The notes under the pieces: model-generated
The model's database searches: none
What the model was told of the DNA's origin: nothing
The model's input: the letters and a program-made list of their open reading frames with translations, nothing else
Position numbers and translations under genes: made by a program
Shown: positions 15,135 to 59,056 of the stretch, in pieces
Layout of the letters: each line of letters begins with the position of its first letter
Numbering within the stretch: the stretch's first letter is position 1
Origin: an uncultured bacterium
GTDB lineage: Bacteria > Bacteroidota > Ignavibacteria > OLB7
Reading direction: 5' to 3'
NCBI GenBank assembly: GCA_966250335.1
Contig: CBINGZ010000001.1
Location: 129,010-193,009 of the forward strand
Length of the DNA: 64,000 nucleotides

Positions 15135-15751
15135 AAATCGGAATCATCGTTGATGGTGATGGGGAATTTCTATCTCTATCGAAATTGATTGATAAATTAG
15201 CAATCACCAACAAGGTTCTAGCCCCGATTAAAGCAGACATTCAGCCTAACGCCTCATTTCATCATATTGCGATGAAAACTGCCGTCGGCATCACCATTCT
15301 TCTAAGGAAGGAGGTCAATAGAATTATTGTTCTTATCGATCGTGAGCAAAGGCCAGAATGTCCAGGTGAGATTGCTGAAAAGATTCAAAAGAGAATCCAA
15401 GATAGCCATCTTAAGCATGGGAGCGTTGAGATTTTCGTCGTCCTTAAGGATCGGATGTTTGAGAACTGGCTGATAGCCGACCCTCATGCCTTCTCGAAGA
15501 TGCCCGCACGCTTCGAGCTTGAAGCAGGGTTAACGCGAGGGATTATCGGGAGAGCTGATAATCTTGATGCATTAACAATCTTAAAAAAGGCCGTGGTAAA
15601 AACGAAGTACAGCAAAACGCAGGACCCACCCAGAATACTATCCGTTGTTGACCCTCTAGAAATGGCCCGCAACTCGCGATCGTTCCGCCGATTTCTCCGA
15701 ATGCTCGACCATCCCGACTATCGCACCCGAAGCAAGACCGCAGCACCCTAA
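15131..15751 (+). CDS. DUF4276-like small protein (possible Toprim-like nuclease partner of the ATPase)
   Basis: 206 aa; start overlaps ATPase stop (ATGA); acidic motifs IIVDGDGE, IIVLIDRE, VLKDRMFENWLIADP; size and context match DUF4276 proteins that accompany AAA_21 ATPases (recalled, not searched). Confidence 0.5.
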   Translation: MKIGIIVDGDGEFLSLSKLIDKLAITNKVLAPIKADIQPNASFHHIAMKTAVGITILLRKEVNRIIVLIDREQRPECPGEIAEKIQKRIQDSHLKHGSVEIFVVLKDRMFENWLIADPHAFSKMPARFELEAGLTRGIIGRADNLDALTILKKAVVKTKYSKTQDPPRILSVVDPLEMARNSRSFRRFLRMLDHPDYRTRSKTAAP

Positions 15752-22553: not shown

Positions 22554-25364
22554 ATGTCGCCGCTTTTCCGCAGCCTTCACAGAGCATTCGAGCGCCACGC
22601 GCATCCGCGTCGTGTCGCGATCCTTCTCGTCATCTTCCTCGCCGCGGCCGCCGGCGCCCTTGCGCAGACCGGCACCCTCACCGGACGGGTGACCGAGGAG
22701 GGGACGGGAACGCCCCTCTCCGGCGCCACGATCCGCATCCTGGGGAGCGACGCCACCACCCGGCAGAGCGGCGCCATCAGCAGAACCGACGGCACCTATA
22801 CCGTCAGGGGGATCACGCCGGGACGGTACACGGTGCTGGTCACCTACATCAGCTACGCGTCGTTCGAGAAGAAGGATGTGGAGATCACGGCGGGAGGGAC
22901 CGTCACCGTCGACGCCGTTCTCCGTCCGCAGGTCCTGGGGGGGAACGAGATCGTGGTCTCGGCGTCGCGCCGTCCGGAGAAGGAGACCGAGGCTCCCGCC
23001 TCCGTTTCGGTGATCAGCGCGCGGGAGATCCAGGAGCGCCCCGCCCTCACGCCGATCGATCATGTGCGGGGGGTACAGGGGGTCGATATCGTGCAGTCCG
23101 GCCTGACACAGAACAATGTCGTGACGCGAGGATTCAACAACGTCTTCAGCGGCATGCTGACGACCCTTACCGACAACCGGACCGCCAGCGTCCCCTCGCT
23201 GCGGGTCAACGCCTACAACTTCATCCCGCTGGTCAACGAGGATATCCAGCAGATGGAGATCATCCGCGGGCCCGCCTCGGCGCTCTACGGACCGAACGCC
23301 TCCAACGGCGTGCTCCATATCATCACCCGTTCTCCCTTCTCCTCGGCCGGCACATGGCTCTCCCTGGCCGGCGGTGAACGGAGCGTGCTGCAGGGGATGT
23401 TCCGTCATGCCGGGACGATCGGCGACAACTTCGGCTACAAGATCTCCGGACAGTATATGAGCGGCGACGACTGGGAGTTCACCGATACCGCCGAGGTCTC
23501 CGCCCGGGCCGCCGCGCTCGCTGAACCGGGAGTGAACCCGGACACGCTGAAGATCGGTGTGCGAGACAACGCGATCCGACGGGCGGGAGGAGAGCTGCGG
23601 CTCGATTATATCCCGATGGAGGATATGACGGCGATCCTGGCGATCGGCCGGAACCAGGCGATCAACAACGTCGACCTCACCGGCGTCGGCGCGGCGCAGG
23701 TGAAGGACTGGAGCTACACCTACTATCAGCTCCGCCTTCTCTACAAGGATCTCTTCGTTCAGGGCTTCTTCAACCAGAGCGACGCGGGGAAGACCTACCT
23801 GCTCCGGACCGGCGCGCCGATCGTCGACAGGTCAAACCTCTTCGTGGCGCAGGCGCAGCATACCTACTCCCTGGCCGACGACGTGGCGCGGCTGACCTAC
23901 GGCCTCGACCTTCAGCTCACCAACCCCGTCACCGACTCCACGATCAACGGCTCCAACGAGGGGAAGGATGGGATCACGGAGATCGGCGCCTACGCGCAGG
24001 GAGATATCAAGCTGATCGCCGATCTGCTCAATCTGGTGGCGGCGGTCCGGGTCGACAAGCACAGCAGCCTGAGCGATCCGGTCCTCTCGCCGCGCGCCGC
24101 CCTGGTCTTCTCGCCGATCAAGGATCAGACGTTCCGCTTCACCTACAACCGCGCCTTCAGCGCCCCCACGACCAACGAACTCTTCATGGATATCGTGGCG
24201 CAGACGACGCCGGTCTTCGACGTGCGGGCGAGCGGCGTGCCGGAAACAGGCTTCTCCTTCAGGTTCGACCCGCAGGGGAACCCCTACATGCACTCGACGC
24301 TCGCCCCCGACCCGCGCGCTCCGCTCCCGATCGCCGACGTCCATCTGGCGTGGGAGGGGGTGAAACGGCTGATGAAGACGAGCCTCCCCGACTCTCTCCA
24401 TCCCTTCGTCGATCAGATTCCGGCTCCGCCGGCCGGGGTGGTGAGGCCGGAGCTGCGGATCGTCAACCCGGAGACGGGGCTCTTCGATCCCTACGACCTG
24501 AGAAGGCTCACGAGCCGCGAGCCGGTGGAACCGACCATCACCTCCACACTGGAGCTCGGCTACAAGGGGACGATCGCGGAGAGGATCTCTCTCAGCATCG
24601 ACCTTTACAGATCGCACTACGAGAATTTCGTCGGTCCGCTGGAGGTGATCACCCCCACGGTCTTCATGGAACAGTCGTCGCTCCAGGAATATCTTCGTCA
24701 GATATTGATCCAGGGAGGGATGACCGATTCGGCGGCGGCCCTGCAGGCTGCATACTTCGCGCCGAGAGTCTCCGGCATTCCCTCCTTCTCCTCCGAGTTC
24801 ATCGGCGTGCCGATCGGAACCGTCTCCGCGGAGCAGGCCGCCGACCCGACCGCCGTGATGCTGACGTTCCGCAACTACGGCGAGATCACCCTCTACGGCT
24901 ACGACATCGGCCTGCAGGTGGGGATCACCGAGGAGATCGGCGCCGGCGCAACGGTATCGTATGTCGATAAGAATTTCATCCCCGACCTGGACGGCATCTC
25001 CGATCTCTCCCTGAACGCCCCGAAATTCAAGTACGCTCTGATGGCCGAATACCGCAGCGCCGAGCATGGGCTTGCCGTCAACGCCCGCTTCCGCCATGTG
25101 GACGGGTTCAAGATCAACTCCGGCGTCTACATCGGGGGAGTCCCCGGGTTCTCCACGTTCGATCTCAACATCGACTATCGTATTCCGTTCGTGGAGGGAT
25201 TGAACTTCTCCCTCACCGCCCAGAACCTTCTCACATGGGTCGAGAAGAAGGAGCCGGGAGCGACCGAAAGCAGCTACGAGAGCGCCGACGGGCACGCGGA
25301 GTTCTTCGGCACGGCGGAGATCGGACGGCTGGTGCTGGGGCGGCTGTCGTATTCGTTCAGGTAG
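22554..25364 (+). CDS. TonB-dependent outer-membrane receptor with N-terminal carboxypeptidase-regulatory-like domain
   Basis: Signal peptide; CarboxypepD_reg-like GTLTGRVTEEGTGTPLSGATIRI; plug domain (TEAPASVSVISAREIQERPALTPIDHVRGVQGV); C-terminal barrel ending ...RLSYSFR. Confidence 0.8.
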   Translation: MSPLFRSLHRAFERHAHPRRVAILLVIFLAAAAGALAQTGTLTGRVTEEGTGTPLSGATIRILGSDATTRQSGAISRTDGTYTVRGITPGRYTVLVTYISYASFEKKDVEITAGGTVTVDAVLRPQVLGGNEIVVSASRRPEKETEAPASVSVISAREIQERPALTPIDHVRGVQGVDIVQSGLTQNNVVTRGFNNVFSGMLTTLTDNRTASVPSLRVNAYNFIPLVNEDIQQMEIIRGPASALYGPNASNGVLHIITRSPFSSAGTWLSLAGGERSVLQGMFRHAGTIGDNFGYKISGQYMSGDDWEFTDTAEVSARAAALAEPGVNPDTLKIGVRDNAIRRAGGELRLDYIPMEDMTAILAIGRNQAINNVDLTGVGAAQVKDWSYTYYQLRLLYKDLFVQGFFNQSDAGKTYLLRTGAPIVDRSNLFVAQAQHTYSLADDVARLTYGLDLQLTNPVTDSTINGSNEGKDGITEIGAYAQGDIKLIADLLNLVAAVRVDKHSSLSDPVLSPRAALVFSPIKDQTFRFTYNRAFSAPTTNELFMDIVAQTTPVFDVRASGVPETGFSFRFDPQGNPYMHSTLAPDPRAPLPIADVHLAWEGVKRLMKTSLPDSLHPFVDQIPAPPAGVVRPELRIVNPETGLFDPYDLRRLTSREPVEPTITSTLELGYKGTIAERISLSIDLYRSHYENFVGPLEVITPTVFMEQSSLQEYLRQILIQGGMTDSAAALQAAYFAPRVSGIPSFSSEFIGVPIGTVSAEQAADPTAVMLTFRNYGEITLYGYDIGLQVGITEEIGAGATVSYVDKNFIPDLDGISDLSLNAPKFKYALMAEYRSAEHGLAVNARFRHVDGFKINSGVYIGGVPGFSTFDLNIDYRIPFVEGLNFSLTAQNLLTWVEKKEPGATESSYESADGHAEFFGTAEIGRLVLGRLSYSFR

Positions 25365-26664: not shown

Positions 26665-27240
26665 TTGATAGCGACGACCTTGCAACCGGCTACACAAGAC
26701 GACCGGACGCTCCTTGAACGAGCGAGTGCGGGTGATCATACCGCGTTCAGCGTTCTGTTCGAACGGTACAAGTCGGGCGTCTACCGCTTCTGCGTGCTGA
26801 TGCTGGGGGACAGGGCTTCCGCGGAGGATATCTATCAGGAGGTCTTCCTTAATTTCTACAAGGCCTGCCGCAACGGCGACCAGGTACGGAATGTGCGGAA
26901 CTACCTGATCACGGCCGCGCGCAACCGCTGCCTGAACTCGATCCGCCTGACGCGTCGCCACACGACCCTGGACGATTCTCCCGTCCTGTCGTACGATCAC
27001 GACGTTACTATCAGCGATACCGGAGAGCATCTCCAGAACGCGCTGATGCAGATTCATCCGCAGTATCGCGAGGCCTTCCTGCTGTTCGAGCTGGAGGGTT
27101 ATTCGTATGAAGAGATCTGCGAGCAGCTGCAGATAGGGAAAACGGTGGTACGAAACCGGATCTATCGCGCAAAACAGGCGCTCCAGAAGATTCTTCGTCC
27201 GCTGCTGCGGGACGACGACGACGAACAGGCGGTGAACTGA
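26665..27240 (+). CDS. RNA polymerase ECF-type sigma-70 factor
   Basis: Region 2 (YRFCVLMLGDRASAEDIYQEVFLNF) and region 4 (YREAFLLFELEGYSYEEICEQLQIGKTVVRNRIYRAKQAL). Confidence 0.85.
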   Translation: MIATTLQPATQDDRTLLERASAGDHTAFSVLFERYKSGVYRFCVLMLGDRASAEDIYQEVFLNFYKACRNGDQVRNVRNYLITAARNRCLNSIRLTRRHTTLDDSPVLSYDHDVTISDTGEHLQNALMQIHPQYREAFLLFELEGYSYEEICEQLQIGKTVVRNRIYRAKQALQKILRPLLRDDDDEQAVN

Positions 27241-27243
27241 AGA

Positions 27244-28518
27244 ATGAATATCCACGAACAGATCATAGCTCTCCTGAACGGAGAGATGACCGACGAGACG
27301 CAGGTATCGGAGCTGATGCACGTGCTGGCCGTCTCCCCGGAGAAGCGGGAGCTGCTGGTGGAGCAGGTGCGGATGACACGGGCATTCCAGAACATGGCGA
27401 CCGGCATCGCCCCTTCGCGCGCGGCCGACGCCGCGCTCTGGGAACAGATCGCCTCCGTCGACGCCGCCCTTCCGGCGCGGACTCCGGTCGCCCCGACACC
27501 TGTCGCCGGAACCCCGGCTCCGCTCCCCACGGGACTTCGCGCGGGAGCCGTGGGTCTGCTGGCCACGCTTCTTGTGGGGGCCGGAATCGGCGTCGGCTAC
27601 ATGATGTTCGGCGGGGATGGCTCGAACGCCCTTGCGGAGTCGACCCCGCGTCCCGCGGCCGTCGCCGCGCCGGTCGCTCCCGGTCTGAACGATTCGCTCC
27701 GCCTGCTCGGAACCCGCTACAGCGAACTGAACGGACGGTACGACCTCGCGATCCTGGAGATCGAGAAGCTGCGGAATCGTCCCGCCCCGAAGCCGGAGAT
27801 CCGCTACGTGACGATCGAGGTGCCGGTGGCAGCCGAACCCGCGGCGACCGTGACGGCGATGGAGACGGGACAGATCACGACGACCGACGAAGAGACGCCG
27901 GCACGTCTTCTGGCCGGACGCGACGCCACGACGCCGGCGATCGCTCCGCAGGAGACCCCCGTTTCGCTCCGGTCGCCGGGCCTCGACGCCGACGAGATGC
28001 GGGTGGAACGCGATCCGCTCTTCCAGGCGGGACTCCGGAACAATCTCCGCTATGCGGTCACCAAGGTCTACGGCCAGAACCGGCAGAACACCCTGACCGA
28101 CCGTGAGCTCTATCTCTCCATGAAGCTCTCGGGAGAGGGGAACGCCCTTTCGAACCTGAGGCTCGGGGTTGCGGGAGGTCAGACCGAATACTCCTTCATC
28201 GCCCACTCCAACACCGGCCAGGAGCGGAACGACACGATCTTCAAGCTGACCCGACTCCTCTGGTACGGACGCGGATACGTGGCGCCGCAGCTCTTCACAT
28301 GGGAACAGATGAACCTTGCGGGAGCGCTGGAGATAGGAGCGGGAGGGACGCAGATCGGGCCGTTCGGGACGGTCGGATTCAACCTGGAGTATATCCCCTC
28401 CGATTTCATCTCGGTCAATGTCGGCGTCTCCGCATGGCAGCTCTGGACGCAGATCCGGAATCAGACGAACACGAGCACGAACCTGAACGCATATTGGGGA
28501 GCAGCCGTCCGATTCTGA
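27244..28518 (+). CDS. Putative anti-sigma factor (single TM, large C-terminal domain)
   Basis: Begins 4 nt after sigma gene; N-terminal anti-sigma-like helix, TM AVGLLATLLVGAGIGVGYMMF, Pro/Ala-rich linker. Confidence 0.5.
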   Translation: MNIHEQIIALLNGEMTDETQVSELMHVLAVSPEKRELLVEQVRMTRAFQNMATGIAPSRAADAALWEQIASVDAALPARTPVAPTPVAGTPAPLPTGLRAGAVGLLATLLVGAGIGVGYMMFGGDGSNALAESTPRPAAVAAPVAPGLNDSLRLLGTRYSELNGRYDLAILEIEKLRNRPAPKPEIRYVTIEVPVAAEPAATVTAMETGQITTTDEETPARLLAGRDATTPAIAPQETPVSLRSPGLDADEMRVERDPLFQAGLRNNLRYAVTKVYGQNRQNTLTDRELYLSMKLSGEGNALSNLRLGVAGGQTEYSFIAHSNTGQERNDTIFKLTRLLWYGRGYVAPQLFTWEQMNLAGALEIGAGGTQIGPFGTVGFNLEYIPSDFISVNVGVSAWQLWTQIRNQTNTSTNLNAYWGAAVRF

Positions 28519-29276: not shown

Positions 29277-29540
29277 CGCCGAAGTCCGCCGCAGGGCGGA
29301 ATATCGGCATGCGACATCCCAGGTCCGCACAACCACCTATTTTCCGACCGAGCATACGCCGAGTGAGAACTAGCACGGATATTGTTGTCTTAGGGTAGTG
29401 GAGAGATTGTCAGGGTCGACACTCTCTCGTAAAGGTGACCAGCCTCCGTCTCGATGATATCCGCGAATGCTCCGATCCGTGAACGAACGTCCTTCCGGTC
29501 GTTTCGTCCCCCGGGCATACGTCATAATGCCTGTCGAATA

Positions 29541-31207
29541 ATGGTGAACACGAAGCGCAGAACGATCCGAACAGTGACCCGACTATTGAATATCATAGCC
29601 CGAACCGTTCTTCCCTCCGCACTCCGCGCGGTTCCCGCTCTTCTTGCCGTCGGGACGATTCTTCTTTCTTCCTCCGGCACGGCATGGGGGCAGGGGGATG
29701 CAGATTCCCTCAAGTCGAGCAGACTCAGCAACATCGATTTCGTCGTCACCAACAACGGCATCTTCGGATACGATACTGAACAGCATACGGCCGGATTCAA
29801 GGCGCGCGGAGCAGACAAGAAGCGGTACATGTTCGGCAGCGGCCTCTGGTTCGGCGCACGCAAGATCGTGCGCGACAGAATGCAGTCGCTTGTCTTCTAC
29901 ACCTACAACCCCTTCTCCAGCAACAGCTCGGCGACGCCGGGCGAACGGCTGACAAGCCATGACTACGGTCCGGCGACGGTCTATCATTCGGTGGAGCACG
30001 ACCGCTTCGACGGCTCGGCGCCGAACGACACCGGGTTCGGTCCGGCGTGGCCCCTCTGGCTCCTTCCCGACCAGTTCTACGCCAGCCCGCTCTCTCCCGG
30101 CACGTTCGAACCGCGCCTCCTGCGGCGGACGTTCAATCCCTACATAAAGCCCGCCTTCGTCGGGGAAGCGGACGAACAGTTCGTAACGCGATATCATGAC
30201 GGCGATCTCTCGCGCTATGAGATCGGTATGTCGGATGCGATCGCGCGCGGCTATCCGCTCGGCCTCCAGATCCAGCAGAATGTCTACTCGTGGGGAAGAG
30301 AGGGATTGCAGGATATCATCATCGTGCAGTACCAGATCATCAACACCTCCACCGATACCCTCTTCGACTGCGCGGCCGCCCAGTTGTCCGATCCCGATAT
30401 CGGCGAGAACAACAAGAACGACAACGCGACCTTCTACCACGGCGGCGAGGAGCTGCGGGCGGCATACGCATGGAGCAGTCCCGAAGGGGATACCCCCCTC
30501 GGAGCCCTCGCGATCATCCTCCTCGAAGCCCCGATGACCCGCCCCCCCGGCTGGGTCGACAACAGCCTGCGGAGGAACTACAAGATTCAGGGAAGAACCG
30601 GCACCTTCTCAACCTGGAAACGCCGCGACTCGCAGATCTACCCCGTCACCGATCAGGAACGATACGACCTCCTGACCAACGGAGAACTCGATGCCGACAG
30701 CGCCGAGGGGGATATGCATCTGCTGATGGCCTCCAGAACGTTCGACATGAAGCCGGGAGATACCGCCCACTTCGCGATCGCCTATGCCCTGCTCGATACC
30801 GTCCCCAGCCGGACGAACGGCGGCAGCTCCCATTCGGAGCTGGCGAAGGCAAGCGTGGAGCCGCAGCTTGCGACCCTCGTCTCGCTGATACGTGATCTCT
30901 ACTACTACACGGGCCCGATCATGAGCGATGCTCCCGAGGTCGAAACGGGAGGTCGTAAAACCTCGATCACCCCAACCCCGCGCGCGGCCAGACCGTGATC
31001 CGCTACGGAGTGGAGAGCCCCTCGCAGGTGACGGTCAGGGTCCGCAACACGCTCGGCGAGACCGTCGAGACGGTCGACGCCGGGATGCGCGAGACGGGCT
31101 CGCATGAGCTCCTTCTCGACGTAACATCCCTCGACTCAGGCGTGTATGTTGTCGAAGTGAATGCGGGAGAGGGACGAGAGATCATGAAACTTGTCGTGGC
31201 AAAATAG
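29541..31207 (+). pseudogene. T9SS-secreted hypothetical protein, frameshifted near 30957 (A4 homopolymer) so that the C-terminal sorting domain is in a different frame
   Basis: Signal peptide MVNTKRRTIRTVTRLLNIIARTVLPSALRAVPALLAVG; main frame stops at 30998; the -1 frame from 30959 reads NLDHPNPAAGQTVIRYGVESPSQVTVRV...KLVVAK = canonical T9SS CTD; rho-independent terminator follows at 31232. Confidence 0.55.
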
Positions 31208-31231
31208 CCGACCACCCACCGATCGGACTGA

Positions 31232-31265
31232 AAGCGCGCCTGAGAACGGGCGCGCTTTTTTTTGG
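31232..31265 (+). terminator. Rho-independent terminator (AGCGCGCC-tgagaac-GGGCGCGCT followed by T9)
   Basis: Seen directly. Confidence 0.7.
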
Positions 31266-31517: not shown

Positions 31518-32294
31518 ATGAACCCCCGTTCCATTCTTACCGTTCTCTCGCTTGTCGTGGCCGGAATCTGGTCTTCCGGTTGTTCCGAGGATCCCTCGGA
31601 GCCGGCCGTTCCCGATACGACCCCCACGGCGCTTCATCTCAGATTCGTGCCGACCTTCGGCGCCGATTCGCTCAGGACCGACAGGTCCTACACAACCGTC
31701 GCCGGCGAAAGCGTGAAGTTCACAACCCTCCAGTGCTACATCTCAGGGATCGCCCTGGTCGCCGAGGATGGCACGGAAGTCCCGATCGACACGATCCGAC
31801 TGATCGATCTGCTGGAGCCGGACACCCAGACGACCCCGGTGATCTCCGACTCGGTCAAGCCCGGCACGTACAGGTCGATCCGCTTCCGTATCGGTGTTCC
31901 CGAAAGCGAGAACCACAAGGACGCGGCCACCCAGGACTACCCCCTGGGCCCCAACAGCGGCATGTACTGGTCATGGGCGACGGGATATATCTTCCATAAG
32001 ATCCATGGACGGGTCGATTCCGCCGGCACGGAGGTCTCCTTCGCCTATCATGTAGGCCAGGATGAGCGGATGGTGGAGATCACACTGGATAAGACCTTCA
32101 CCGTCAAGGCGAGGGAAGCGCACACGGTGAGAGTAAACGTCGACTACGCGAAACTCTTCACGACCGGATTGAACGGAACCGACCCGCTGAAGCCCGGCGC
32201 GGTCCCGTCGGAACGGATGCATCATGTAGGCCCCAAGGAGCTGGCCGACCGCATCTCGGCGAACACCAGGCTTATGTACAACCCAGGGAACTGA
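31518..32294 (+). CDS. MbnP-like lipoprotein (partner of MbnH-like di-heme peroxidase; 'metallo-mystery pair' type)
   Basis: Lipobox GIWSSGCS; motif GMYWSWATGYIFHKIHG resembling the conserved Trp-rich copper-site region of MbnP; immediately upstream of di-heme CCP gene. Confidence 0.45.
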   Translation: MNPRSILTVLSLVVAGIWSSGCSEDPSEPAVPDTTPTALHLRFVPTFGADSLRTDRSYTTVAGESVKFTTLQCYISGIALVAEDGTEVPIDTIRLIDLLEPDTQTTPVISDSVKPGTYRSIRFRIGVPESENHKDAATQDYPLGPNSGMYWSWATGYIFHKIHGRVDSAGTEVSFAYHVGQDERMVEITLDKTFTVKAREAHTVRVNVDYAKLFTTGLNGTDPLKPGAVPSERMHHVGPKELADRISANTRLMYNPGN

Positions 32295-32311
32295 GCGGGG
32301 ATCGTATCGCA

Positions 32312-33343
32312 ATGCTGACCTTTCGTTCCATCATCGCCTCCCTCTTCGCTCTGGCGCTCCTGTCGGGGTGCTCCGATGTTTCGGGCGTCGTCGAAAACCC
32401 CGACGACGTCCTGAAGCCCCCGGCAGGGTTCCCCGCGATCGCCGTTCCCGCCGACAATCCCTACAGCGCGGCAAAGGCCGAGCTCGGACGACGTCTCTTC
32501 TACGATACACGCCTCAGCCGCGACTACTCGGTCTCGTGCGGATCGTGCCACCGGCAGGAACATGCCTTCACCGACGCCTCGGCGCTCAGCAGCGGGTTCG
32601 AGGGACGTATCGGATCGCGCAACGCCATGACCCTGACGAACGTCGCCTACAACACCTCGTTCTTCTGGGACGGCGGCGTGCCGACCCTGGAACAGCAGGC
32701 GATCGCCCCGATCATCCATCCCGACGAGATGAACATGCACACCGACACACTGGTCACCCGGCTCCGGTCGGCGCCGGTCTATGCCGAGCTCTTCGCGAAG
32801 GCATGGGGGACGTCGGACATCTCGCTCGAGCGGATCACCAGGTCGATCGCGACCTTCGAGCGCCGCCTGCTCAGCTCCGAATCAGGGTACGACAAATGGA
32901 AGCGGGGAGACTGGGACGCCATGTCGGGAGCGGCCGTGCGCGGCTCCGAGCTCTTCTTCGGGGAGAAGGGGGATTGCTTCCACTGCCATGGAAGCTTCAA
33001 CTTCTCCGACAACATGTTCCACAACAATGCGATAGATTCCATATCGACCGGCGACGAGGGACGATTCAAACTGACTCAGCGCTCCTCCGATATGGGAAGC
33101 TTCCGCACGCCGACCCTGCGCAACGTGGCGCTGACCGGCCCCTACATGCATGACGGACGCTTCGCGACGCTGGAGGAGGTGGTGCGTCATTACAACTCCG
33201 GGGGAAAACCTCATCCCAGCCGTGACGCGCTGATGCGTCCTCTTGGGCTTACCCCCCGGGAGGAGGAGGATCTGGTGGAGTTCCTGAAGGCGCTGACCGA
33301 CCCTGCCTTCCTTTCCGACACATCACTCTCCGATCCATGGTAG
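32312..33343 (+). CDS. Di-heme cytochrome c peroxidase family protein (MbnH/MauG-like)
   Basis: Two CxxCH haem motifs (CGSCH, CFHCH); lipobox LLSGCS; CCP-family conserved RTPTLRNVALTGPYMHDGRF. Confidence 0.8.
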   Translation: MLTFRSIIASLFALALLSGCSDVSGVVENPDDVLKPPAGFPAIAVPADNPYSAAKAELGRRLFYDTRLSRDYSVSCGSCHRQEHAFTDASALSSGFEGRIGSRNAMTLTNVAYNTSFFWDGGVPTLEQQAIAPIIHPDEMNMHTDTLVTRLRSAPVYAELFAKAWGTSDISLERITRSIATFERRLLSSESGYDKWKRGDWDAMSGAAVRGSELFFGEKGDCFHCHGSFNFSDNMFHNNAIDSISTGDEGRFKLTQRSSDMGSFRTPTLRNVALTGPYMHDGRFATLEEVVRHYNSGGKPHPSRDALMRPLGLTPREEEDLVEFLKALTDPAFLSDTSLSDPW

Positions 33344-33414
33344 GCGCGGAACAGACCCGCGCCTCCGGATCACGGCCCGCTTCAACAACCATTCCCACAA
33401 GGATTCACAGCACG

Positions 33415-33750
33415 ATGTCTCATTACTACGAGTCGAACGACCTTGGCCGTTTCGCCGACGTCGGCACGCACAACAGGGAACTGATGGACAAGTTCTTCGA
33501 GTACTACGGCATGGCGACCGGCGGCGACGGCGCCATCAGCAGGCGCGAGAAGCAGCTGATCGGCCTTGCCGTCGCCCACACCATCCAGTGCCCCTACTGC
33601 ATCGACGCCTACACCACCGGTTGCCTGGAAGCGGGCGCAGACCCCGCGCAGATGACCGAGGCGCTCCACGTGGCGGCGGCGGTTCGCGGCGGCTCGTCGC
33701 TCGTCCACGGCGTTCAGATGATCAACGTGCTGGAGAAGGTCGGCGCCTGA
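33415..33750 (+). CDS. AhpD-like/carboxymuconolactone decarboxylase family protein (arsenosugar-biosynthesis-associated peroxidase-like type)
   Basis: CMD-family signature GLAVAHTIQCPYCIDAYT (CxxC). Confidence 0.6.
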   Translation: MSHYYESNDLGRFADVGTHNRELMDKFFEYYGMATGGDGAISRREKQLIGLAVAHTIQCPYCIDAYTTGCLEAGADPAQMTEALHVAAAVRGGSSLVHGVQMINVLEKVGA

Positions 33751-33889
33751 TTCAACTCCCCGATCTCCACTCGATCCCGGCCTCTCGATAACACCGGCGA
33801 GGTCATATCCGTCAGTACATTCACGTCCGTCGGCGCGGACTCCCAACGGAGGCGACGGCGGACGTGTATCTCTACAGCATCCGAATCAG

Positions 33890-34930
33890 ATGGAACTACA
33901 GGTCGTGGAGCCGGCAACGGCAGGTTCATGGAAGGGGGACGCTCCGGCGGTCACCCACCGGTTCGATTTCAGGGAGCGTGTGAAACGGCACGAGCTCGAT
34001 CTGCGCCCCATCTCGGTCGACACGCTCCAGGTGAACGTGGGGAAGCTCTGCAATCAGGCATGCCTCCACTGTCACGTGGACGCATCCCCGAAACGAACCG
34101 AGCAGATGGACCGTCCCACGGCCGAACGGTGCATCGAGGTGCTGGCGGCCCACCCGCAGATCTCGAAGCTCGACATCACCGGAGGCGCCCCGGAGCTCAA
34201 CCCGAACTTCGCCTGGATGGTGACCGAGGCGCGCAGGCTCGGTCGGCATGTCATGGTGCGACACAACCTGACGGTACAGCTCGACGGCAACCCGGTCACC
34301 GGTGAGACGATGGAGCATCTCCCCGCGTTCTTCGCCGAACATGGCTGCGAGGTGATCTCCTCGCTCCCCTACTACGCCCAATATTTCACCGACAAGCAGC
34401 GGGGACGAGGGGTGTTCGAGAAGTCGGTGGAGGGGATGCGCCGTCTGAACGCCGTCGGCTACGGCGTTCCCGGTTCCGGGCTGACACTGAACCTGGTCTA
34501 CAACCCGGCGGGGGCGTTCCTTCCGGCGCCCCAGTCGTCGCTGGAGGCCGATTTCAAGCGGGAGCTGGCGGCGAAGTTCGGGCTCACGTTCAACAGCCTC
34601 TACACGATCACCAACATGCCGATCCATCGGTTCCGGGAGGACCTGCTGCGGCACGGCGGCTACGAGGCGTACATGGAGAAGCTGATCACCGCCTTCAACC
34701 CGGCCGCGGCCGAGGGGATCATGTGCCGTTCCCTCGTAAGCGTCGATTACAACGGACGCCTGAGCGATTGTGATTTCAATCAGATGCTCGATCTTCCCCT
34801 CTCCGGCAGATCGGGGACGATCTTCGACTTCGATCTGGAGGCGCTGCTGGCCCGCAGGATCGTCTTCGCCGACCACTGCTTCGGCTGCACCGCGGGAGCC
34901 GGCAGCTCGTGCGGCGGAGCCACCGCGTAG
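33890..34930 (+). CDS. Radical SAM protein of the ArsS (arsenosugar biosynthesis) type, Cys variant
   Basis: CX3CX2C radical SAM motif in VNVGKLCNQACLHCHV; C-terminal FADHCFGCTAGAGSSCGG tail characteristic of ArsS-like proteins (Cys at the position that is Sec in selenoprotein versions). Confidence 0.6.
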   Translation: MELQVVEPATAGSWKGDAPAVTHRFDFRERVKRHELDLRPISVDTLQVNVGKLCNQACLHCHVDASPKRTEQMDRPTAERCIEVLAAHPQISKLDITGGAPELNPNFAWMVTEARRLGRHVMVRHNLTVQLDGNPVTGETMEHLPAFFAEHGCEVISSLPYYAQYFTDKQRGRGVFEKSVEGMRRLNAVGYGVPGSGLTLNLVYNPAGAFLPAPQSSLEADFKRELAAKFGLTFNSLYTITNMPIHRFREDLLRHGGYEAYMEKLITAFNPAAAEGIMCRSLVSVDYNGRLSDCDFNQMLDLPLSGRSGTIFDFDLEALLARRIVFADHCFGCTAGAGSSCGGATA

Positions 34931-35047
34931 GCGCGGCACGAAAGAGAGGGGAAGTGGGTTGGAAAGGAAGCCGGGCAACAGACGCGCAACTCATCAATAC
35001 ACGATATACTGCTCCCGCGGGAGCATACATCTCCAGGAGAATCAACC

Positions 35048-35650
35048 ATGATGAACGACGCAACCGGAGCCACGAACGAAGCGGGGGATGGAGCGGGGGA
35101 CGCCGCCCAGACCGAACGCGAGACGGCCACGCTGGGGGGGGGCTGCTTCTGGTGCGTGGAGGCGGTGTTCGACAAGGTGAAAGGAGTCTCGTCGGTCGTC
35201 TCCGGCTATTCGGGAGGTTCGACCGGTGATCCCCACTACAACGAGGTCTGCTCGGGGATGACGGGGCACGCGGAGGTGATCCAGGTCACGTTCGATCCCG
35301 AGGTCATCACCTTTCGCGATATTCTTGAGATCTTCTTCACCGTTCATGACCCCACCACGCTCAACCGGCAGGGGGGAGACGTGGGGACACAGTATCGGTC
35401 GGTGATATTCTACAACTCCCCCGAACAGAAGAGGATCGCCGAGGAGACGATCGCGGAGCTGAACGCCGGGGGGATCTTCGACGCGCCGATCGTGACGGAG
35501 GTGACCCCCCTCTCGATATTCTATCGCGCCGAGGCATATCACCAGGGCTACTACGAGCGCAACCTGGACCAGCCCTACTGCAGCGTGGTGATCTCGCCGA
35601 AGGTCGCCAAGTTCCGCAAGCGCTTCGCCGAACGGTTGAAGCGGCCGTAG
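35048..35650 (+). CDS. msrA: Peptide methionine sulfoxide reductase A
   Basis: Active-site GGGCFWC; full MsrA fold motifs. Confidence 0.9.
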   Translation: MMNDATGATNEAGDGAGDAAQTERETATLGGGCFWCVEAVFDKVKGVSSVVSGYSGGSTGDPHYNEVCSGMTGHAEVIQVTFDPEVITFRDILEIFFTVHDPTTLNRQGGDVGTQYRSVIFYNSPEQKRIAEETIAELNAGGIFDAPIVTEVTPLSIFYRAEAYHQGYYERNLDQPYCSVVISPKVAKFRKRFAERLKRP

Positions 35651-42217: not shown

Positions 42218-42271
42218 TCTGTCTGGAGTCTCCCATCTCTTAGACTCCATACTCGCATGGTCCGGGAGCGG

Positions 42272-45200
42272 CTACTGCGCCGCCGCGTACCAGAGACCTG
42301 TCGATGCACGATAGACCAGCGGGAGGCTTCTCCCCGCGTTCACCGTCACCGACGACCCGCCGAGCGACCCGCCGGAGACCGTGATACCGGCGCCCGACGT
42401 GTTCACGATCCACATCTGCTGTCCGTTTCTGACGCCGCCCGCGTTGAGGGCCACGTTCCCCCCCGCCAGGATCATCGCTTCCGATACGGTTCCGATATTT
42501 CCCGACGCGACGACCCGCTCCGAGCTCGGGGCGAGCGTCGCCGGATCGATCCAGCCGAGCTGCGCCGTCATGTTCGGCGACGCGCCGCTTGTGGAGACGA
42601 TGCCGAGCACCCGGTTGGCCGGGGAGGCGCTGAGGGTTTCAGGAAGCGTATAGGTGATGTTGTCGATCGTCTGCGATGCCGAGGCCGCAAAGCCGGAATA
42701 CCGCTGCGTCGCGGCCGTCCCGCCGACGAACTGAAGCTGCGACGGCGCGCCCCCTGCCGTGGCGCCGCTCAGCATCAGGCGCACCTTGCCGATCGCGTTG
42801 ATCGCATAGTCGCCCGAGGCCGTCCCCGGAGTGTAGGCGAACACGCCCGAGTTCACCCCCTGAACCTGCGGGATCAGACCGAGCACCTGCAGCGTCGACG
42901 CGTTCGCCGCCGCCACGATACCGATGTTCGAGAAGAGCGAGCCGGTCCCCTGACCGAACATGCCGACGTTCGGCAGGAAGTTCGTGCTCTGCGCCTGACC
43001 CAGCGTGCCGATCGCCGTCACCGAGGCATTGGTCGAGGGGATGATCGCCGCTCCGGCCGCGCCGGTGATCGACGCCGTCTGGCTGGGAGCAGTGAAGCCC
43101 GAGACCGACACGCCGTTGACGCCGATACCGGAAGCGAAGCCCGCCGTGGGGTTGGAACTGGAGATCGTGGTGCCGGAGACACCGGCGATCTGTCGCGTCC
43201 CTCCCGTGACCGACGTTACCACGTCGAGGCCGTAGGAAGGTGTCCCCGCCGTCGTCGCGTTGGTGGCGACATTGACACGACCGAAGTTGGAGGTCGTGGT
43301 GCCGATCATCACGACGCCGTCCTTATCGATCCGAGCGCGCTCCGCTCCGGAGGTGCCGAGCACCAGCGGCTGCGTGTTGCCTGCCGAGGTCCCCAGGAAC
43401 TGCTCTCCTGCCCCGGTGCCTCCCGTTCCGATATTATTACCTCCCAGCCCCCATGCGAACGTGCTGGCGTCGATCCAGTCGAGCTGCGCCGTCATGTTCG
43501 GCGACGTACCGGACGAGGAGGAGACTCCGAGGAGTTTTCCGGCCGGAGCCGCGCCGATCGAGGCCGGAAGCGTATAGCTGATGTTATCGCTCTGCGATGT
43601 GGACGCCGCGAAGCCGGAATACCGCTGCGCCGCGGCCGTCCCGCCGACGAACTGAAGCTGCGACGGCGCGCCCCCTGCCGTGGCGCCGCTCAGCATCAGG
43701 CGCATCTTGCCGATCGCGTTGATCGAGTAGTCCCCCGCCGCCGTCCCCGGAGTGTAGGCGAAGACGCCCGTATTGACACCCTGAACCTGCGGGATCAGTC
43801 CCATCACCTGAAGCGTCGACGCGTTCGCCGCCGCAACCATACCGATGTTGGAGAAGAACGAGCCGCTTCCCTGGCCGAACATGCCGACGTTCGGCAGGAA
43901 GTTCGCGTTCTGCGCCTGCCCCAGGGTGCCGATCGCCGTCACCGAGGCATTGGTCGAGGGAACGATCGCCATGCCGACGACGCCGGAGATCGAGGCGGTC
44001 TGGTTTGGAGCGGCGAAGTCGGAGTAGGTCTGGCCTATGACACCGATGCCGGAGGAGACTCCCGCCGTCGGGTTCGAGCTCGTAAAGACGGTCCCCATGA
44101 TACCGCTCACCTGCCGCGTGCCGCCGGCGGCGGTCGTCAGCACATCGATACCGGTTCCCGGGGCGCCCGTTGCGCTCGCGTTGGTGACCACGTTCAGGCG
44201 GCCGTAGTTCGCGGTGGTGCTGCCGAGCATCATGACCCCATCCTTGTCGATGCGCGCGCGCTCCGTCCCGGAGGTGCCGAGCACCAGCGGCTGCGTGTTG
44301 CCTGCCGAGGTCCCCAGGAACTGCTCTCCTGCCCCGGTGCCTCCCGTTCCGATATTATTACCTCCCAGCCCCCATGCGAACGTGCTGGCGTCGATCCAGT
44401 CGAGCTGCGCCGTCATGTTCGGCGACGTGCCGGATGAGGAGGAAACTCCAAGGAGCTTTCCGGCAGGAGCCGCACCGATCGAGGCCGGGAGGGTGTAGCT
44501 GATGTTATCGCTCTGCGATGCGGATGCCGCGAAGCCGGAATACCGCTGCGCCGCCGACGTCCCGCCGACGAACTGAAGCTGCGACGGAGCGCCGCTTGCC
44601 GTTGCGCCGCTCAGCATCAGACGCATCTTCCCGACCGCGTTGATCGAGTAATCGCCCGCCGCCGTCCCCGGGGTGTAGGCGAACACGCCCGAGTTCACCC
44701 CCTGGACCTGCGGGATCAGACCAAGAATCTGGAGCGTGGAAGCGTTCCCCGCTCCGACCACGCCGATGTTCGAGAAGAGGGAGCCGGCGCTCTGGCCGAG
44801 GGCGCCGACGTTCGGCAGGAAGTTCGTGCTCTGCGCCTGCCCCAGGGTGCCGATGGCGGTTACCGAGGCATTGGTCGAAGGGATGATCGCCGCTCCGGCC
44901 GAGCCGGTGATCGACGCCGTCTGGCTGGGAGCGGTGAAGCCGGAGTAGGAGAAGCCCATGACGCCGATACCGGAGGCAAGGCCGGCCGCGGGGCTGGAAC
45001 TGGAGAAGGTGGTGCCGGAGATGCCGGCGATCTGCCGCGTTCCTCCCGTCACCGACGCCACCGCATCAATGGCGTACGGAGGAGTCCCCGCCGTCGTCGC
45101 ATTGGTGGCGACGTTGACCCGACCGACGGTGGAGGTCGTGGTGCCGACCATCACGACGCCGTCCTTGTCGACACGGGCGCGCTCGGCGCCGGAAGTAGCG

Positions 45201-46369
45201 ATGACGAGAGGCTGCGTGTTCCCGGCCGAGGTGCCGAGGAACTGCTGCCCGGCGCCGGTACCTCCGGTCGTGATATTGTTACCCCCCAGTCCCCACGAGT
45301 TGTCGCTGGAGGGAATCCACTGCGAGCCGTTCCAGCGGAGCGCCTGTCCCGCCTGGGCCCCCATGCCGCTCAGTTTGTCGCCGGTCACGGCGCCGTTCTC
45401 GATCGATCGGTTCTGGACCACGCCGTCGCCGAGCTCCTGGGCGCCGATGCTCCGATCCAGAATCCTGGGACCGTCGACGGCGTCGGCCGCGATCTGGCTC
45501 GATCCGACGGCCGAGAAGGCGATCTTGTCGCGCGTGACGGCCCCTCCGGCGATCTTCGCCGTGCTCACCGACCCGTCGGCGATCATCGTGGAGATGATCC
45601 CGCCGCTCGCCACTTCGAGCCGTGCGTCGCCGGAGGTCGCTCCCCCGGTGAGGCCGGGCCCGGCCGTGACGCTCGTAATATCTCCCGACGATGTGATCGA
45701 CTGCCACGAGGCGGTCGTGCCGTTGGAGGTGAGCACCTGTCCGGCGCCGGAACCGGTCGCGCCGATCTTGGCGACCGTCACCGAGCCGTCGGCGATCTTC
45801 GCCGATGTGATCGCCCCATCGGCGATCTTCGCGCCGTTGACCGCGTTGTTCATCAGGTCGGCGGTGGAGACCGCGCCGTCGGCGATCTTGGCGCTGGTGA
45901 TCGCGTTGTCGGCCACATCCTCCGCCATTTCCGCCACATCCGAACGAAGGCTGTAGGGGGCCGAGGTGAGCTCGGTGCGTGGAAGCTCCGACCCGGCGTC
46001 GATCGTGACGCCCAGATAGTACGGCTTGTCGAACGTCAGGGCGCCGAACGGCGTGGCGCTCCCGAGGTTCACGTTGAAGAGCCCGCGGGTGACCTGCACG
46101 CTCTGCGTCTCGCTCCAGACGGGGGCGCCGCCGGTTGCCGCATCGTAGAGGCGAAGGACCATGGAGTAGGTGCCGTCGTTGACCGGCACGACCCCGTCGG
46201 GACCGGTCACGACCCCCTGGTAGCTGATGAGTTCCGGAACCTGACCGGCGGCGCCGGCTCCCCCGGCCATCATTCCAACAAGAACGCAGAGCCCTGCAAG
46301 CGAACGGGAGCGCGCAGCCGTACGGTTCGGCGCGAGCGGTCCCTTCACGATACGATGTATCATGTTCAT
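42272..46369 (-). CDS. Large (1365 aa) secreted Gly/Ser/Thr/Ala-rich repetitive surface protein with three near-identical ~305-aa internal repeats
   Basis: Signal peptide; N-terminal module PELISYQGVVT...WSETQSVQVTRGLFNVNLG; repeated AxxSAKIADGAV units; three copies of WGLGGNNIxTGGTGAGxQFLGTSAGNTQPLV...; overlapping +-strand ORF 42098..44437 is Arg-rich shadow. Confidence 0.6.
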   Translation of the reverse strand: MNMIHRIVKGPLAPNRTAARSRSLAGLCVLVGMMAGGAGAAGQVPELISYQGVVTGPDGVVPVNDGTYSMVLRLYDAATGGAPVWSETQSVQVTRGLFNVNLGSATPFGALTFDKPYYLGVTIDAGSELPRTELTSAPYSLRSDVAEMAEDVADNAITSAKIADGAVSTADLMNNAVNGAKIADGAITSAKIADGSVTVAKIGATGSGAGQVLTSNGTTASWQSITSSGDITSVTAGPGLTGGATSGDARLEVASGGIISTMIADGSVSTAKIAGGAVTRDKIAFSAVGSSQIAADAVDGPRILDRSIGAQELGDGVVQNRSIENGAVTGDKLSGMGAQAGQALRWNGSQWIPSSDNSWGLGGNNITTGGTGAGQQFLGTSAGNTQPLVIATSGAERARVDKDGVVMVGTTTSTVGRVNVATNATTAGTPPYAIDAVASVTGGTRQIAGISGTTFSSSSPAAGLASGIGVMGFSYSGFTAPSQTASITGSAGAAIIPSTNASVTAIGTLGQAQSTNFLPNVGALGQSAGSLFSNIGVVGAGNASTLQILGLIPQVQGVNSGVFAYTPGTAAGDYSINAVGKMRLMLSGATASGAPSQLQFVGGTSAAQRYSGFAASASQSDNISYTLPASIGAAPAGKLLGVSSSSGTSPNMTAQLDWIDASTFAWGLGGNNIGTGGTGAGEQFLGTSAGNTQPLVLGTSGTERARIDKDGVMMLGSTTANYGRLNVVTNASATGAPGTGIDVLTTAAGGTRQVSGIMGTVFTSSNPTAGVSSGIGVIGQTYSDFAAPNQTASISGVVGMAIVPSTNASVTAIGTLGQAQNANFLPNVGMFGQGSGSFFSNIGMVAAANASTLQVMGLIPQVQGVNTGVFAYTPGTAAGDYSINAIGKMRLMLSGATAGGAPSQLQFVGGTAAAQRYSGFAASTSQSDNISYTLPASIGAAPAGKLLGVSSSSGTSPNMTAQLDWIDASTFAWGLGGNNIGTGGTGAGEQFLGTSAGNTQPLVLGTSGAERARIDKDGVVMIGTTTSNFGRVNVATNATTAGTPSYGLDVVTSVTGGTRQIAGVSGTTISSSNPTAGFASGIGVNGVSVSGFTAPSQTASITGAAGAAIIPSTNASVTAIGTLGQAQSTNFLPNVGMFGQGTGSLFSNIGIVAAANASTLQVLGLIPQVQGVNSGVFAYTPGTASGDYAINAIGKVRLMLSGATAGGAPSQLQFVGGTAATQRYSGFAASASQTIDNITYTLPETLSASPANRVLGIVSTSGASPNMTAQLGWIDPATLAPSSERVVASGNIGTVSEAMILAGGNVALNAGGVRNGQQMWIVNTSGAGITVSGGSLGGSSVTVNAGRSLPLVYRASTGLWYAAAQ
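42550..45300. repeat. Three tandem DNA repeats, period ~920 bp, >90% identical, internal to the giant gene
   Basis: Near-identical motifs are seen at 42547–42590 and 44389–44440 (first at 43469–43510 not re-checked); the long gcc..ccgcgaagccggaataccgctgcg..ctgcgacgg block recurs at 42680/43600/44515. Confidence 0.7.
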
Positions 46370-46434
46370 GATGATTCCTGTGAGATTATTATGAAGAAGC
46401 TGTAGTCTGCTGTGCTGGTAGTTCCCTCTTCGAC

Positions 46435-49104: not shown

Positions 49105-49141
49105 CTGTGCGGCAGGTTCAGAAAAGGAGAGGGGAAAGAAG

Positions 49142-58955: not shown

Positions 58956-59056
58956 AGGCCCGGCGGGATCACACCCGGCGCGCCGCCGGAGATACCGGTC
59001 CGGCGCGGGGCATGACCATACCTTACTTTGTGATTTTTCGCGTACTTTCGGCCTCC

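Follow-up and report, generated by a model that had tools for sequence, protein, structure and literature searches.

We propose that positions 31518 to 34930 of the window (the whole 64-kb stretch of DNA analysed here) hold two independent and already described two-gene modules, which a lineage-specific rearrangement has made neighbours, a reading to which we assign a probability of roughly 0.8. Both modules have been described and curated before, the first as the MbnP/MbnH 'metallo-mystery pair' and the second as the ArsS/TIGR04169 arsenosugar core, and the two pairs adjoin only in this one organism. The locus is of little value as a discovery; its analysis removes a tempting false lead, namely the reading of a single-genome adjacency as a pathway.

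Four ORFs were confirmed on the forward strand, and the same four genes are called on independent contigs that encode identical proteins. They encode, in order, an MbnP-family lipoprotein (258 aa, 31518..32294); an MbnH-like (MauG-type) di-haem cytochrome c peroxidase (CCP) lipoprotein (343 aa, 32312..33343); an AhpD-like CxxC protein (111 aa, 33415..33750); and the radical SAM enzyme ArsS (346 aa, 33890..34930). A forward-strand msrA gene (35048..35650; PF01625, 219.6 bits) comes next, and these five co-directional genes are separated by gaps of 17, 71, 139 and 117 nt. The gene assignments bear out those of the earlier note: its WxW lipoprotein 17 nt upstream of a lipobox-containing di-haem CCP with two CxxCH motifs is present in the ORFs; profile searches agree with its MbnP/MbnH-type pair (PF20243 and PF03150, with TIGR04039 as the best NCBIfam model); its AhpD-like CxxC protein and the ArsS that follows score above the cutoffs of TIGR04169 and TIGR04167, with the CNQACLHC and CFGC...SSCGG motifs in place; and no match was obtained to the imelysin or generic SPASM families, which it had named as the contrary outcomes.

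In the second module (33415-34930), the AhpD-like protein scores 154 bits against TIGR04169 (arsenosugar biosynthesis-associated peroxidase-like; cutoff 120) and shows no notable difference from that family of the AhpD/CMD fold: it lies immediately upstream of ArsS, carries a CPYC motif that is invariant among its homologues and is 83-87% identical to its counterparts in the closest relatives. Its longest ORF starts at 33337 and includes a 26-residue N-terminal extension that is probably not translated; five close homologues are called as 111-aa proteins beginning MSxYYES, and the extra N-terminal residues of the three longer calls, one of them the window's, show no conservation. Translation most likely begins at 33415, and with this start a 71-nt gap, not an overlap, follows the CCP gene; the overlap with the CCP stop described in the earlier note thus holds for the longest ORF and is lost with the conserved start.

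The ArsS protein scores 414.1 bits against the TIGR04167 equivalog (cutoff 300) and also matches PF04055 and PF12345. It has the CX3CX2C cluster motif (C54-N-Q-A-C58-L-H-C61) and, at its C-terminus, CFGC...SSCGG (C330, C333 and C341), the DUF3641 Cys motif, and represents the Cys rather than the selenocysteine form of the enzyme. Homologues in other phyla are 65-80% identical, and all residues invariant in the family alignment are kept. CX3CX2C, DUF3641 and the C-terminal CxxC...CGG are common to this protein and the cyanobacterial ArsS of arsenosugar biosynthesis (TIGR04167); in contrast, the host here, to judge by best hits and T9SS domains, is non-photosynthetic and of the Bacteroidota/Ignavibacteriota type, and tblastn with a limit of E <= 1e-3 detected no ArsM, TIGR04282 or TIGR04283 homologue across the 64 kb of the window. 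By analogy with characterised ArsS, the cytoplasmic module would work as follows: ArsS would cleave SAM reductively, and the 5'-deoxyadenosyl radical would be added to dimethylarsenite to give 5'-deoxy-5'-dimethylarsinoyl-adenosine, with the AhpD-like CxxC protein, conserved and biochemically uncharacterised, as the thiol-redox partner of ArsS; any ArsM or TIGR04282/TIGR04283 transferase that the organism possesses would lie outside the window. ArsS is known to adenosylate DMAs(III) (PMC13598754), and it is family membership that points to arsenic as the substrate in this organism.

A survey of 80 ArsS loci from 80 species, 65 of them with at least 2 kb of upstream sequence, provides counts, on a small scale, for the neighbourhoods of ArsS. 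The AhpD-like gene adjoins ArsS in 62 of the 80, as it does here, TIGR04282 is linked in 27 and TIGR04283 in 17, and an ArsM-like gene lies within 6 kb in only 17. The earlier note correctly reported msrA as the next gene and no methyltransferase, but its treatment of the missing arsM as an anomaly does not survive these counts: it is normal for an ArsS locus to have no arsM alongside. One might still suppose, because no ArsM, TIGR04282 or TIGR04283 gene is linked, that the adjacency of the two pairs is accidental while the AhpD-like/ArsS pair here uses some compound other than dimethylarsenite as its substrate. The lack of all three homologues from the window, the 63 of 80 loci without ArsM within 6 kb, and the high identity of ArsS between phyla, consistent with a widely required function, speak for such a substrate. 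Against it stand the score well over the equivalog cutoff with all invariant family residues kept; the linkage of ArsM and of the two arsenosugar-type transferases in the numbers of loci just given; and NF041537, a curated ArsM/AhpD-domain fusion family that connects the AhpD-like domain with arsenic methylation and that the window protein matches weakly (E 1.5e-4). Further, ArsM may simply sit elsewhere in the genome, and we consider a different substrate unlikely.

The neighbourhoods of the two pairs bear directly on the proposed rearrangement. No ArsS locus in the survey adjoins an MbnP-MbnH pair, and the arrangement of the window, with MbnP or the CCP next to the ArsS pair, is not repeated in any of these 80 loci of other organisms. 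A CCP homologue is present in two of them, at least 4.3 kb off, and an MbnP homologue in two, a count to be read with the point that one MbnP query by tblastn could miss very divergent MbnP in ArsS loci, whereas the CCP is easily detected. One cluster from this survey ('c5') was set aside as an alternative-frame artefact overlapping ArsS. Conversely, among 31 MbnP-like loci, of which 14 have at least 1.5 kb of sequence past MbnH, MbnH is the next gene after MbnP in 25, most of the exceptions being truncated contigs, and no AhpD-like, ArsS or MsrA gene was found within 6 kb in any of the 31. MsrA homologues are likewise missing from all 80 ArsS loci; MsrA is a conserved partner of neither pair and represents a further unrelated neighbour.

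The closest relatives of each pair place the seam. The six closest ArsS relatives (73-80% identity) keep their own pair among different neighbours, in the order HAD - a 249-259-aa protein - (DUF2064) - CMD - ArsS - SpoIIE, or with WYL - DinB downstream. The 249-259-aa protein is DUF6503-like in the one case tested; the conserved protein of about 255 aa upstream of CMD-ArsS was considered as a hidden MbnP and rejected (BLASTP E 3.8, no NCBIfam match, a weak DUF6503 match). The four closest MbnP relatives (44-51%) similarly keep MbnP - MbnH among different neighbours, three of them with a conserved third gene of 300-366 aa after MbnH and the fourth on a contig that ends early. The window shares the right flank of one locus, L095 (WYL 49%, DinB 42%, M28 64% and SpoIIE 49%), and contains neither the left-flank genes of the ArsS relatives nor the conserved third gene of the MbnP/MbnH relatives. 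With the right flank kept and these genes missing, the breakpoint therefore falls exactly between MbnH and the AhpD-like gene, so that synteny breaks for both pairs at the 71-nt junction (33344..33414). The predicted compartments also part here: MbnP and MbnH begin with hydrophobic signal sequences that end in a lipobox Cys, and no signal sequence was found on the AhpD-like protein, ArsS or MsrA, which suggests that the first pair acts in the cell envelope and the AhpD-like/ArsS pair in the cytoplasm.

As regards transcription, the intrinsic terminator of the upstream T9SS-tail gene (31230..31262, forward strand) consists of a G+C-rich stem of 13 bp and a U8 tract. Its minimum free energy of -22.5 kcal/mol (z = -3.77) was equalled by 0 of 200 shuffles, and it delimits a new transcription unit beginning ahead of the MbnP-like gene. 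A convergent gene lies 3' of the five-gene block. No U-tract terminator was found inside the block, the 71-nt junction included; when the intergenic gaps were folded, the hairpins in 33751-33889 and 34931-35047 proved no more stable than shuffles and were without U-tracts. Neither sigma-70-like promoter sites between the genes of the block nor a Bacteroidetes-type TAnnTTTG promoter between 31000 and 35100 were detected, both results being uninformative on co-transcription, and scans of the entire window for Rfam families and tRNAs gave no matches. Co-transcription is hence possible, given the co-direction of the genes, the terminator before the block, the convergent gene after it and the lack of an internal U-tract terminator; the five genes may share a transcript without forming a pathway, and their co-regulation, for instance by oxidative stress, is possible. 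That the rearrangement went further and made a real five-gene transcription unit, with both modules under one promoter, possibly an oxidative-stress or metal-responsive one, and with the ArsS pair perhaps recruited to a non-arsenic substrate, strikes us as improbable; if true, it would join envelope copper-handling to a cytoplasmic organoarsenical or redox module.

We regard as decidedly improbable the proposal of one operon, made up of the four or five genes, for a new metal(loid) or organo-sulfur/selenium modification pathway in which both pairs cooperate. This is close to the functional fusion of the Cu/haem pair with the ArsS pair put forward in the earlier note, and it can draw on the single strand, the short gaps, the terminator before the block with no U-tract terminator inside it, and a loose redox or oxidative theme common to all the products. 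However, the adjacency is seen in none of the 80 ArsS and 31 MbnP loci nor in the closest relatives of either pair, elsewhere each pair keeps conserved partners of its own, synteny breaks at the junction, and the predicted compartments differ; the idea of a fusion goes unsupported on these same grounds, and two independent modules brought together by rearrangement remain our preferred reading.

For the first of these modules (31518-33343), the assignment of the lipoprotein, whose N-terminus reads MNPRSILTVLSLVVAGIWSSGC, to the MbnP family comes from several lines of comparison. It matches PF20243 (MbnP) with 138.6 bits (cutoff 27) over profile positions 3-178 of 189, and reaches 74.6 bits against TIGR04052 (the MbnP_like_WxW equivalog, 'four-Cys motif protein'), under the cutoff of 140; its only Cys residues are C22, in the lipobox, and C73, which is not conserved, and the four-Cys motif is absent. 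Its motif GMYWSWATGY contains W151-S-W153, which is invariant in 24 homologues; a profile built from these matches PDB 7L6G (MbnP) with E 2.2e-8, with GMxWxW aligned and W151-S-W153 set against the WNW of that structure. M149, H133 and H178 are conserved and aligned with 7L6G as well and are candidates for the Met and His copper ligands. A phmmer search of the PDB with the single sequence gave nothing relevant, 7L6G being reached only by the 24-sequence profile and by fold search: the AF2 model (pLDDT 86.8) matches six 7L6G chains in Foldseek (E 1e-10, probability 1.00, TM 0.54), and these are its only significant PDB fold matches (E <= 0.001). Judged by its sequence, the protein belongs to a divergent Cys-poor subgroup of the MbnP family, in which H133, M149, W151-x-W153, H178 and H236 are invariant. 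This lipoprotein subgroup is thereby documented in FCB-type bacteria as one that falls under the NCBIfam cutoffs while keeping the fold and GMxWxW.

The gene for its di-haem partner starts 17 nt downstream. The CCP has the lipobox LLSGC and the haem motifs CGSCH (residue 76) and CFHCH (residue 222), and matches PF03150 (CCP_MauG domain) with 191.8 bits; its best NCBIfam model is TIGR04039 (MbnH; 311 bits, under the cutoff of 362.85), followed by MauG (250.5). Its best PDB match, over the full length, is 6E1C (E 3.5e-59), which we take to be M. trichosporium MbnH, followed by canonical bCcPs at about 1e-46 and, much more weakly, MauG at about 1e-21. Tyr294 (VVRHYNS) aligns with the Tyr of IDIYSEG in 6E1C and with the Met of KIMSS in 2C1U, presumably the E-haem ligand to judge by the P. 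aeruginosa enzyme, and corresponds by register to residue 275 of 1EB7. The predicted sixth-ligand position of the E haem is thus occupied by Tyr and not Met, and His-Tyr ligation of the E haem defines MauG-type enzymes (PMC11892367). Hardly credible, then, is the suggestion that this is an ordinary H2O2-detoxifying bacterial CCP beside an unrelated beta-sandwich lipoprotein, as the scores under the TIGR04039 and TIGR04052 cutoffs and the strong matches to canonical bCcPs might hint, when the best full-length match is 6E1C, the E-haem Met of canonical enzymes is replaced by a Tyr, Pfam assigns the partner to MbnP, 7L6G is the partner's sole significant PDB match by profile and by fold, and 25 of 31 loci keep the two genes together.

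The closest known counterpart is the MbnP/MbnH pair of Methylosinus trichosporium OB3b (7L6G; TIGR04052/TIGR04039), with the same order of MbnP followed by the di-haem enzyme, the same MbnP fold, the aligned GMxWxW with the flanking NH and H conserved, and the shared Tyr at the E-haem ligand position. The differences are that the MbnP-like protein is only 17% identical to 7L6G, that both window proteins are lipoproteins under the equivalog cutoffs, and that no methanobactin operon is present here. By analogy with that pair, in the cell envelope the MauG-type di-haem MbnH would be driven by H2O2 into a high-valent bis-Fe(IV) state and would oxidise a Trp of W151-x-W153 in MbnP to kynurenine, which, with a Met and a His, would complete the copper site of MbnP. 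In the characterised system the WxW motif of MbnP acquires its Kyn through MbnH, and the Cu site is made of His, Met and Kyn (PMC11951088, a review). A comparable logic links MauG and pre-methylamine dehydrogenase, where a di-haem enzyme of the bCcP family likewise oxidises a Trp in its protein partner; MADH genes are absent here. Kynurenine also stands in the copper sites of MopE and CorA (CorA-CorB) (PMC11951088, PMC11892367, PMC3621798), proteins whose folds differ from that of MbnP (PMC11951088).

Finally, the MbnP/MbnH pair is conserved far beyond methanobactin producers, and isolated pairs are found near MbnT-like TonB-dependent receptors with MbnI/MbnR homologues adjoining (PMC3621798). 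Upstream of the pair in the window lie, on the forward strand, a TonB-dependent receptor (22554-25364) and an ECF sigma factor (26665-27240), both assigned by Pfam, and, where an anti-sigma factor would be expected, a 424-aa protein (27244-28518) that matches no family. This set resembles the known context of isolated pairs and may be linked to the one here, from which two further genes and one terminator separate it.

The five co-directional genes on the + strand of the window (31518-35650) comprise an MbnP/MbnH pair, an AhpD-like/ArsS pair and msrA, and each of the two pairs is a new and moderately divergent representative of a system already known; they lie side by side by chance. The sequence-level description in the earlier note was borne out: the same ORF coordinates are called on three independent metagenomic contigs with identical proteins; Pfam and NCBIfam searches return the family proposed for each of the four genes; and all the quoted motifs are present (GMYWSWATGY, two CxxCH, the lipobox LLSGC, CPYC, CNQACLHC and CFGC...SSCGG). 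The MbnP-like protein (31518-32294, +) scores 138.6 bits with Pfam MbnP (cutoff 27). Its score with the NCBIfam equivalog TIGR04052 (74.6 bits) lies under the cutoff of 140, probably because the 'four-Cys' feature is absent: it is a divergent, Cys-poor lipoprotein form of MbnP. The MbnH-like di-haem protein (32312-33343, +) matches CCP_MauG with 191.8 bits and has as its top NCBIfam match TIGR04039, 'MbnH family di-heme enzyme' (311 bits, below the cutoff of 362.85), with MauG at 250.5. The AhpD-like protein (33337/33415-33750, +) belongs to TIGR04169 (154 bits, cutoff 120), named 'arsenosugar biosynthesis-associated peroxidase-like protein', and ArsS (33890-34930, +) to TIGR04167 (414 bits against 300), with further matches to PF04055 and PF12345; MsrA (35048-35650, +) was recognized by family search. 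An overlap of the di-haem gene's stop with the following ORF had also been claimed; this holds for the longest ORF, starting at 33337, but not for the likely start. Five close AhpD-like homologues are called as 111 aa beginning with MSxYYES, and the N-terminal extensions of three longer calls, including that of the window, have no mutual similarity. Judged from these alignments, translation likely begins at 33415, giving a 71-nt spacer after the MbnH-like gene.

Comparisons with PDB entries support the assignment of the first pair. A PDB search with the single MbnP-like sequence did not find MbnP; a profile of 24 homologues had as its sole match 7L6G (E 2.2e-8), Methylosinus trichosporium MbnP, the alignment taking in GMxWxW together with its flanking NH and H. 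The AlphaFold model of the protein (pLDDT 86.8) likewise retrieves all six 7L6G chains (E ~1e-10, TM 0.54) and nothing else in the PDB at E <= 0.001. The best PDB match of the di-haem protein is full-length to 6E1C (E 3.5e-59), deposited under the name 'Di-heme enzyme' and presumably M. trichosporium MbnH, followed by canonical peroxidases (~1e-46) and MauG (~1e-21). Its Tyr294 aligns with a Tyr of 6E1C and with a Met of the canonical enzymes, which we take to be their E-haem ligand. MauG-type enzymes are set apart from canonical bCcPs by His-Tyr instead of His-Met ligation (PMC11892367).

The central proposal of the earlier note, a novel pathway uniting both pairs, is not supported by gene neighborhoods. 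ArsS loci were queried with the proteins of the window, and every neighboring ORF in them was clustered. At least 598 stretches encode a relative (598 of the 600 listed); hence, the family is widespread. Among the matches listed, we surveyed 80 loci from 80 species, in none of which the window's gene arrangement is reproduced or MsrA is seen; a CCP homologue occurs in only two, at least 4.3 kb distant, and an MbnP homologue in two. The AhpD-like gene adjoins ArsS in 62 of these 80 listed loci, followed in frequency by TIGR04282 (27), TIGR04283 (17) and an ArsM-like methyltransferase (17), with purine nucleoside phosphorylase (6) and rhodanese (5) being rarer. Thus, while arsM is indeed not adjacent in the window, as had been pointed out, there is nothing unusual in this, its absence being the rule among the listed loci (63/80). 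Six loci (L012, L023, L042, L053, L061, L063) have an ArsM-like gene directly upstream of ArsS (1.2-1.8 kb) and no separate AhpD-like gene detected despite ample flanking sequence, which suggests either one of two alternative neighborhood types or ArsM-AhpD fusions as in the curated family NF041537.

The converse survey covered 31 MbnP-like loci, drawn from the contexts of the best protein matches and a metagenome scan. MbnH directly follows MbnP in 25, the exceptions being mostly contigs that end early, and ArsS, AhpD-like and MsrA genes are found within 6 kb in none. Three loci (L109, L110, L111) have the MbnP-MbnH pair tandemly duplicated, with two consecutive pairs each. All four closest MbnP relatives (44-51% identity) retain the pair, and in three of them a conserved 300-366-aa protein, 40-50% identical between copies, is encoded directly 3' of MbnH (L090:3442-4431; L091:10050-10952; L092:2725-3825), the contig of the fourth ending early. 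These proteins have no Pfam match in precomputed annotation, nor do the two tested directly; they may be a third partner in this subgroup of MbnPH systems. The gene is missing from the window.

ArsS relatives at 73-80% identity show two contexts: KdsC-like HAD - 249-259-aa protein - (DUF2064/TIGR04282) - CMD - ArsS - SpoIIE, and CMD - ArsS - WYL - DinB - M28 - SpoIIE, CMD being the AhpD-like gene. The window's right flank of ArsS keeps the latter order, with insertions (WYL 49%, DinB 42%, M28 peptidase 64% and SpoIIE 49% identical), and none of the left-flank genes of these relatives is in the window. As the third gene of the MbnPH subgroup is also absent, the 71-nt spacer between the MbnH-like and AhpD-like genes marks a break in synteny for both modules, as predicted by lineage-specific rearrangement. 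The 249-259-aa protein (L085:4938-5717; L086:6587-7336; L088:5263-6018; L093:8652-9419), of which the L093 copy weakly matches DUF6503 and the other three have no NCBIfam match, consistently precedes CMD-ArsS together with the KdsC-like HAD phosphatase, and both may be further lineage-specific partners of that pair.

Predicted compartments also separate the two modules. Both MbnP-like and MbnH-like proteins have an N-terminal signal sequence and lipobox Cys; no signal sequence was found in the AhpD-like protein, ArsS or MsrA, and we expect the radical SAM enzyme to work in the reducing cytoplasm. Hence, the pairs are unlikely to pass substrate directly to each other. Co-transcription of the five genes appears possible from the sequence, given a strong intrinsic terminator upstream of mbnP (31230-31262; -22.5 kcal/mol, z = -3.8), the lack of any terminator with a U-tract within the block, and a gene after msrA that runs convergently. 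Promoter scans detected no sigma-70-like sites in the gaps of the block and no Bacteroidetes-type TAnnTTTG between 31000 and 35100, results that bear neither way on co-transcription. A long, imperfect hairpin (33821-33866, +), without a U-tract 3' of it, lies within the 139-nt AhpD-like/ArsS spacer, which as a whole is no stabler than shuffled sequence (z = -1.44); the hairpin could conceivably be regulatory, though this is unsupported.

We advance the following inferred mechanisms for the two modules. MbnH is believed to form kynurenine from the Trp in MbnP's WxW motif, completing a His/Met/Kyn copper site (PMC11951088). By analogy with characterised homologues, the window's MbnH, driven by H2O2 to bis-Fe(IV), would turn the WxW Trp of the MbnP lipoprotein into kynurenine, creating a copper site in the envelope. 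This pair may act with a TonB-dependent receptor and an ECF sigma factor encoded 3-9 kb upstream, the latter accompanied by a 424-aa protein placed where an anti-sigma factor would lie; such a context has been described for isolated MbnPH pairs (PMC3621798). In the second module, ArsS would adenosylate DMAs(III), as described for characterised ArsS (PMC13598754), to yield 5'-deoxy-5'-dimethylarsinoyl-adenosine, with the AhpD-like CxxC protein as its putative thiol-redox helper. The ArsM/AhpD-domain fusions of NF041537, which the window's AhpD-like protein matches weakly (E 1.5e-4), tie this domain to arsenic methylation.

Elsewhere in the window, a C-run at ~30970 is one base shorter than in two otherwise identical metagenomic contigs (L001, L002), splitting a T9SS-tail (Por_Secre_tail) protein, a single 555-aa gene in both, into ORFs 29454-30998 and 30995-31207; the shorter run reflects an assembly error in the homopolymer, or else the gene has recently become a pseudogene. 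A 1365-aa ORF at ~42270-46370 (-) has no Pfam match. Tandem paralogues occur as one pair of TPR + LuxR-type HTH regulators (596 and 605 aa; 47314-50959, -) and one pair of PDZ + SpoIIE phosphatases (868 and 912 aa; 56349-61750, +). Finally, a low-GC island (13839-15751, +; ~0.49 against ~0.63 for the window) encodes an AAA_21/AAA_15 ATPase (431 aa) and a DUF4276 protein (206 aa) in + strand ORFs overlapping by 4 nt; with PADLOC matches to HEC-01A (E 3e-56) and HEC-01B (E 4e-17), they probably represent a candidate anti-phage pair gained by horizontal transfer.
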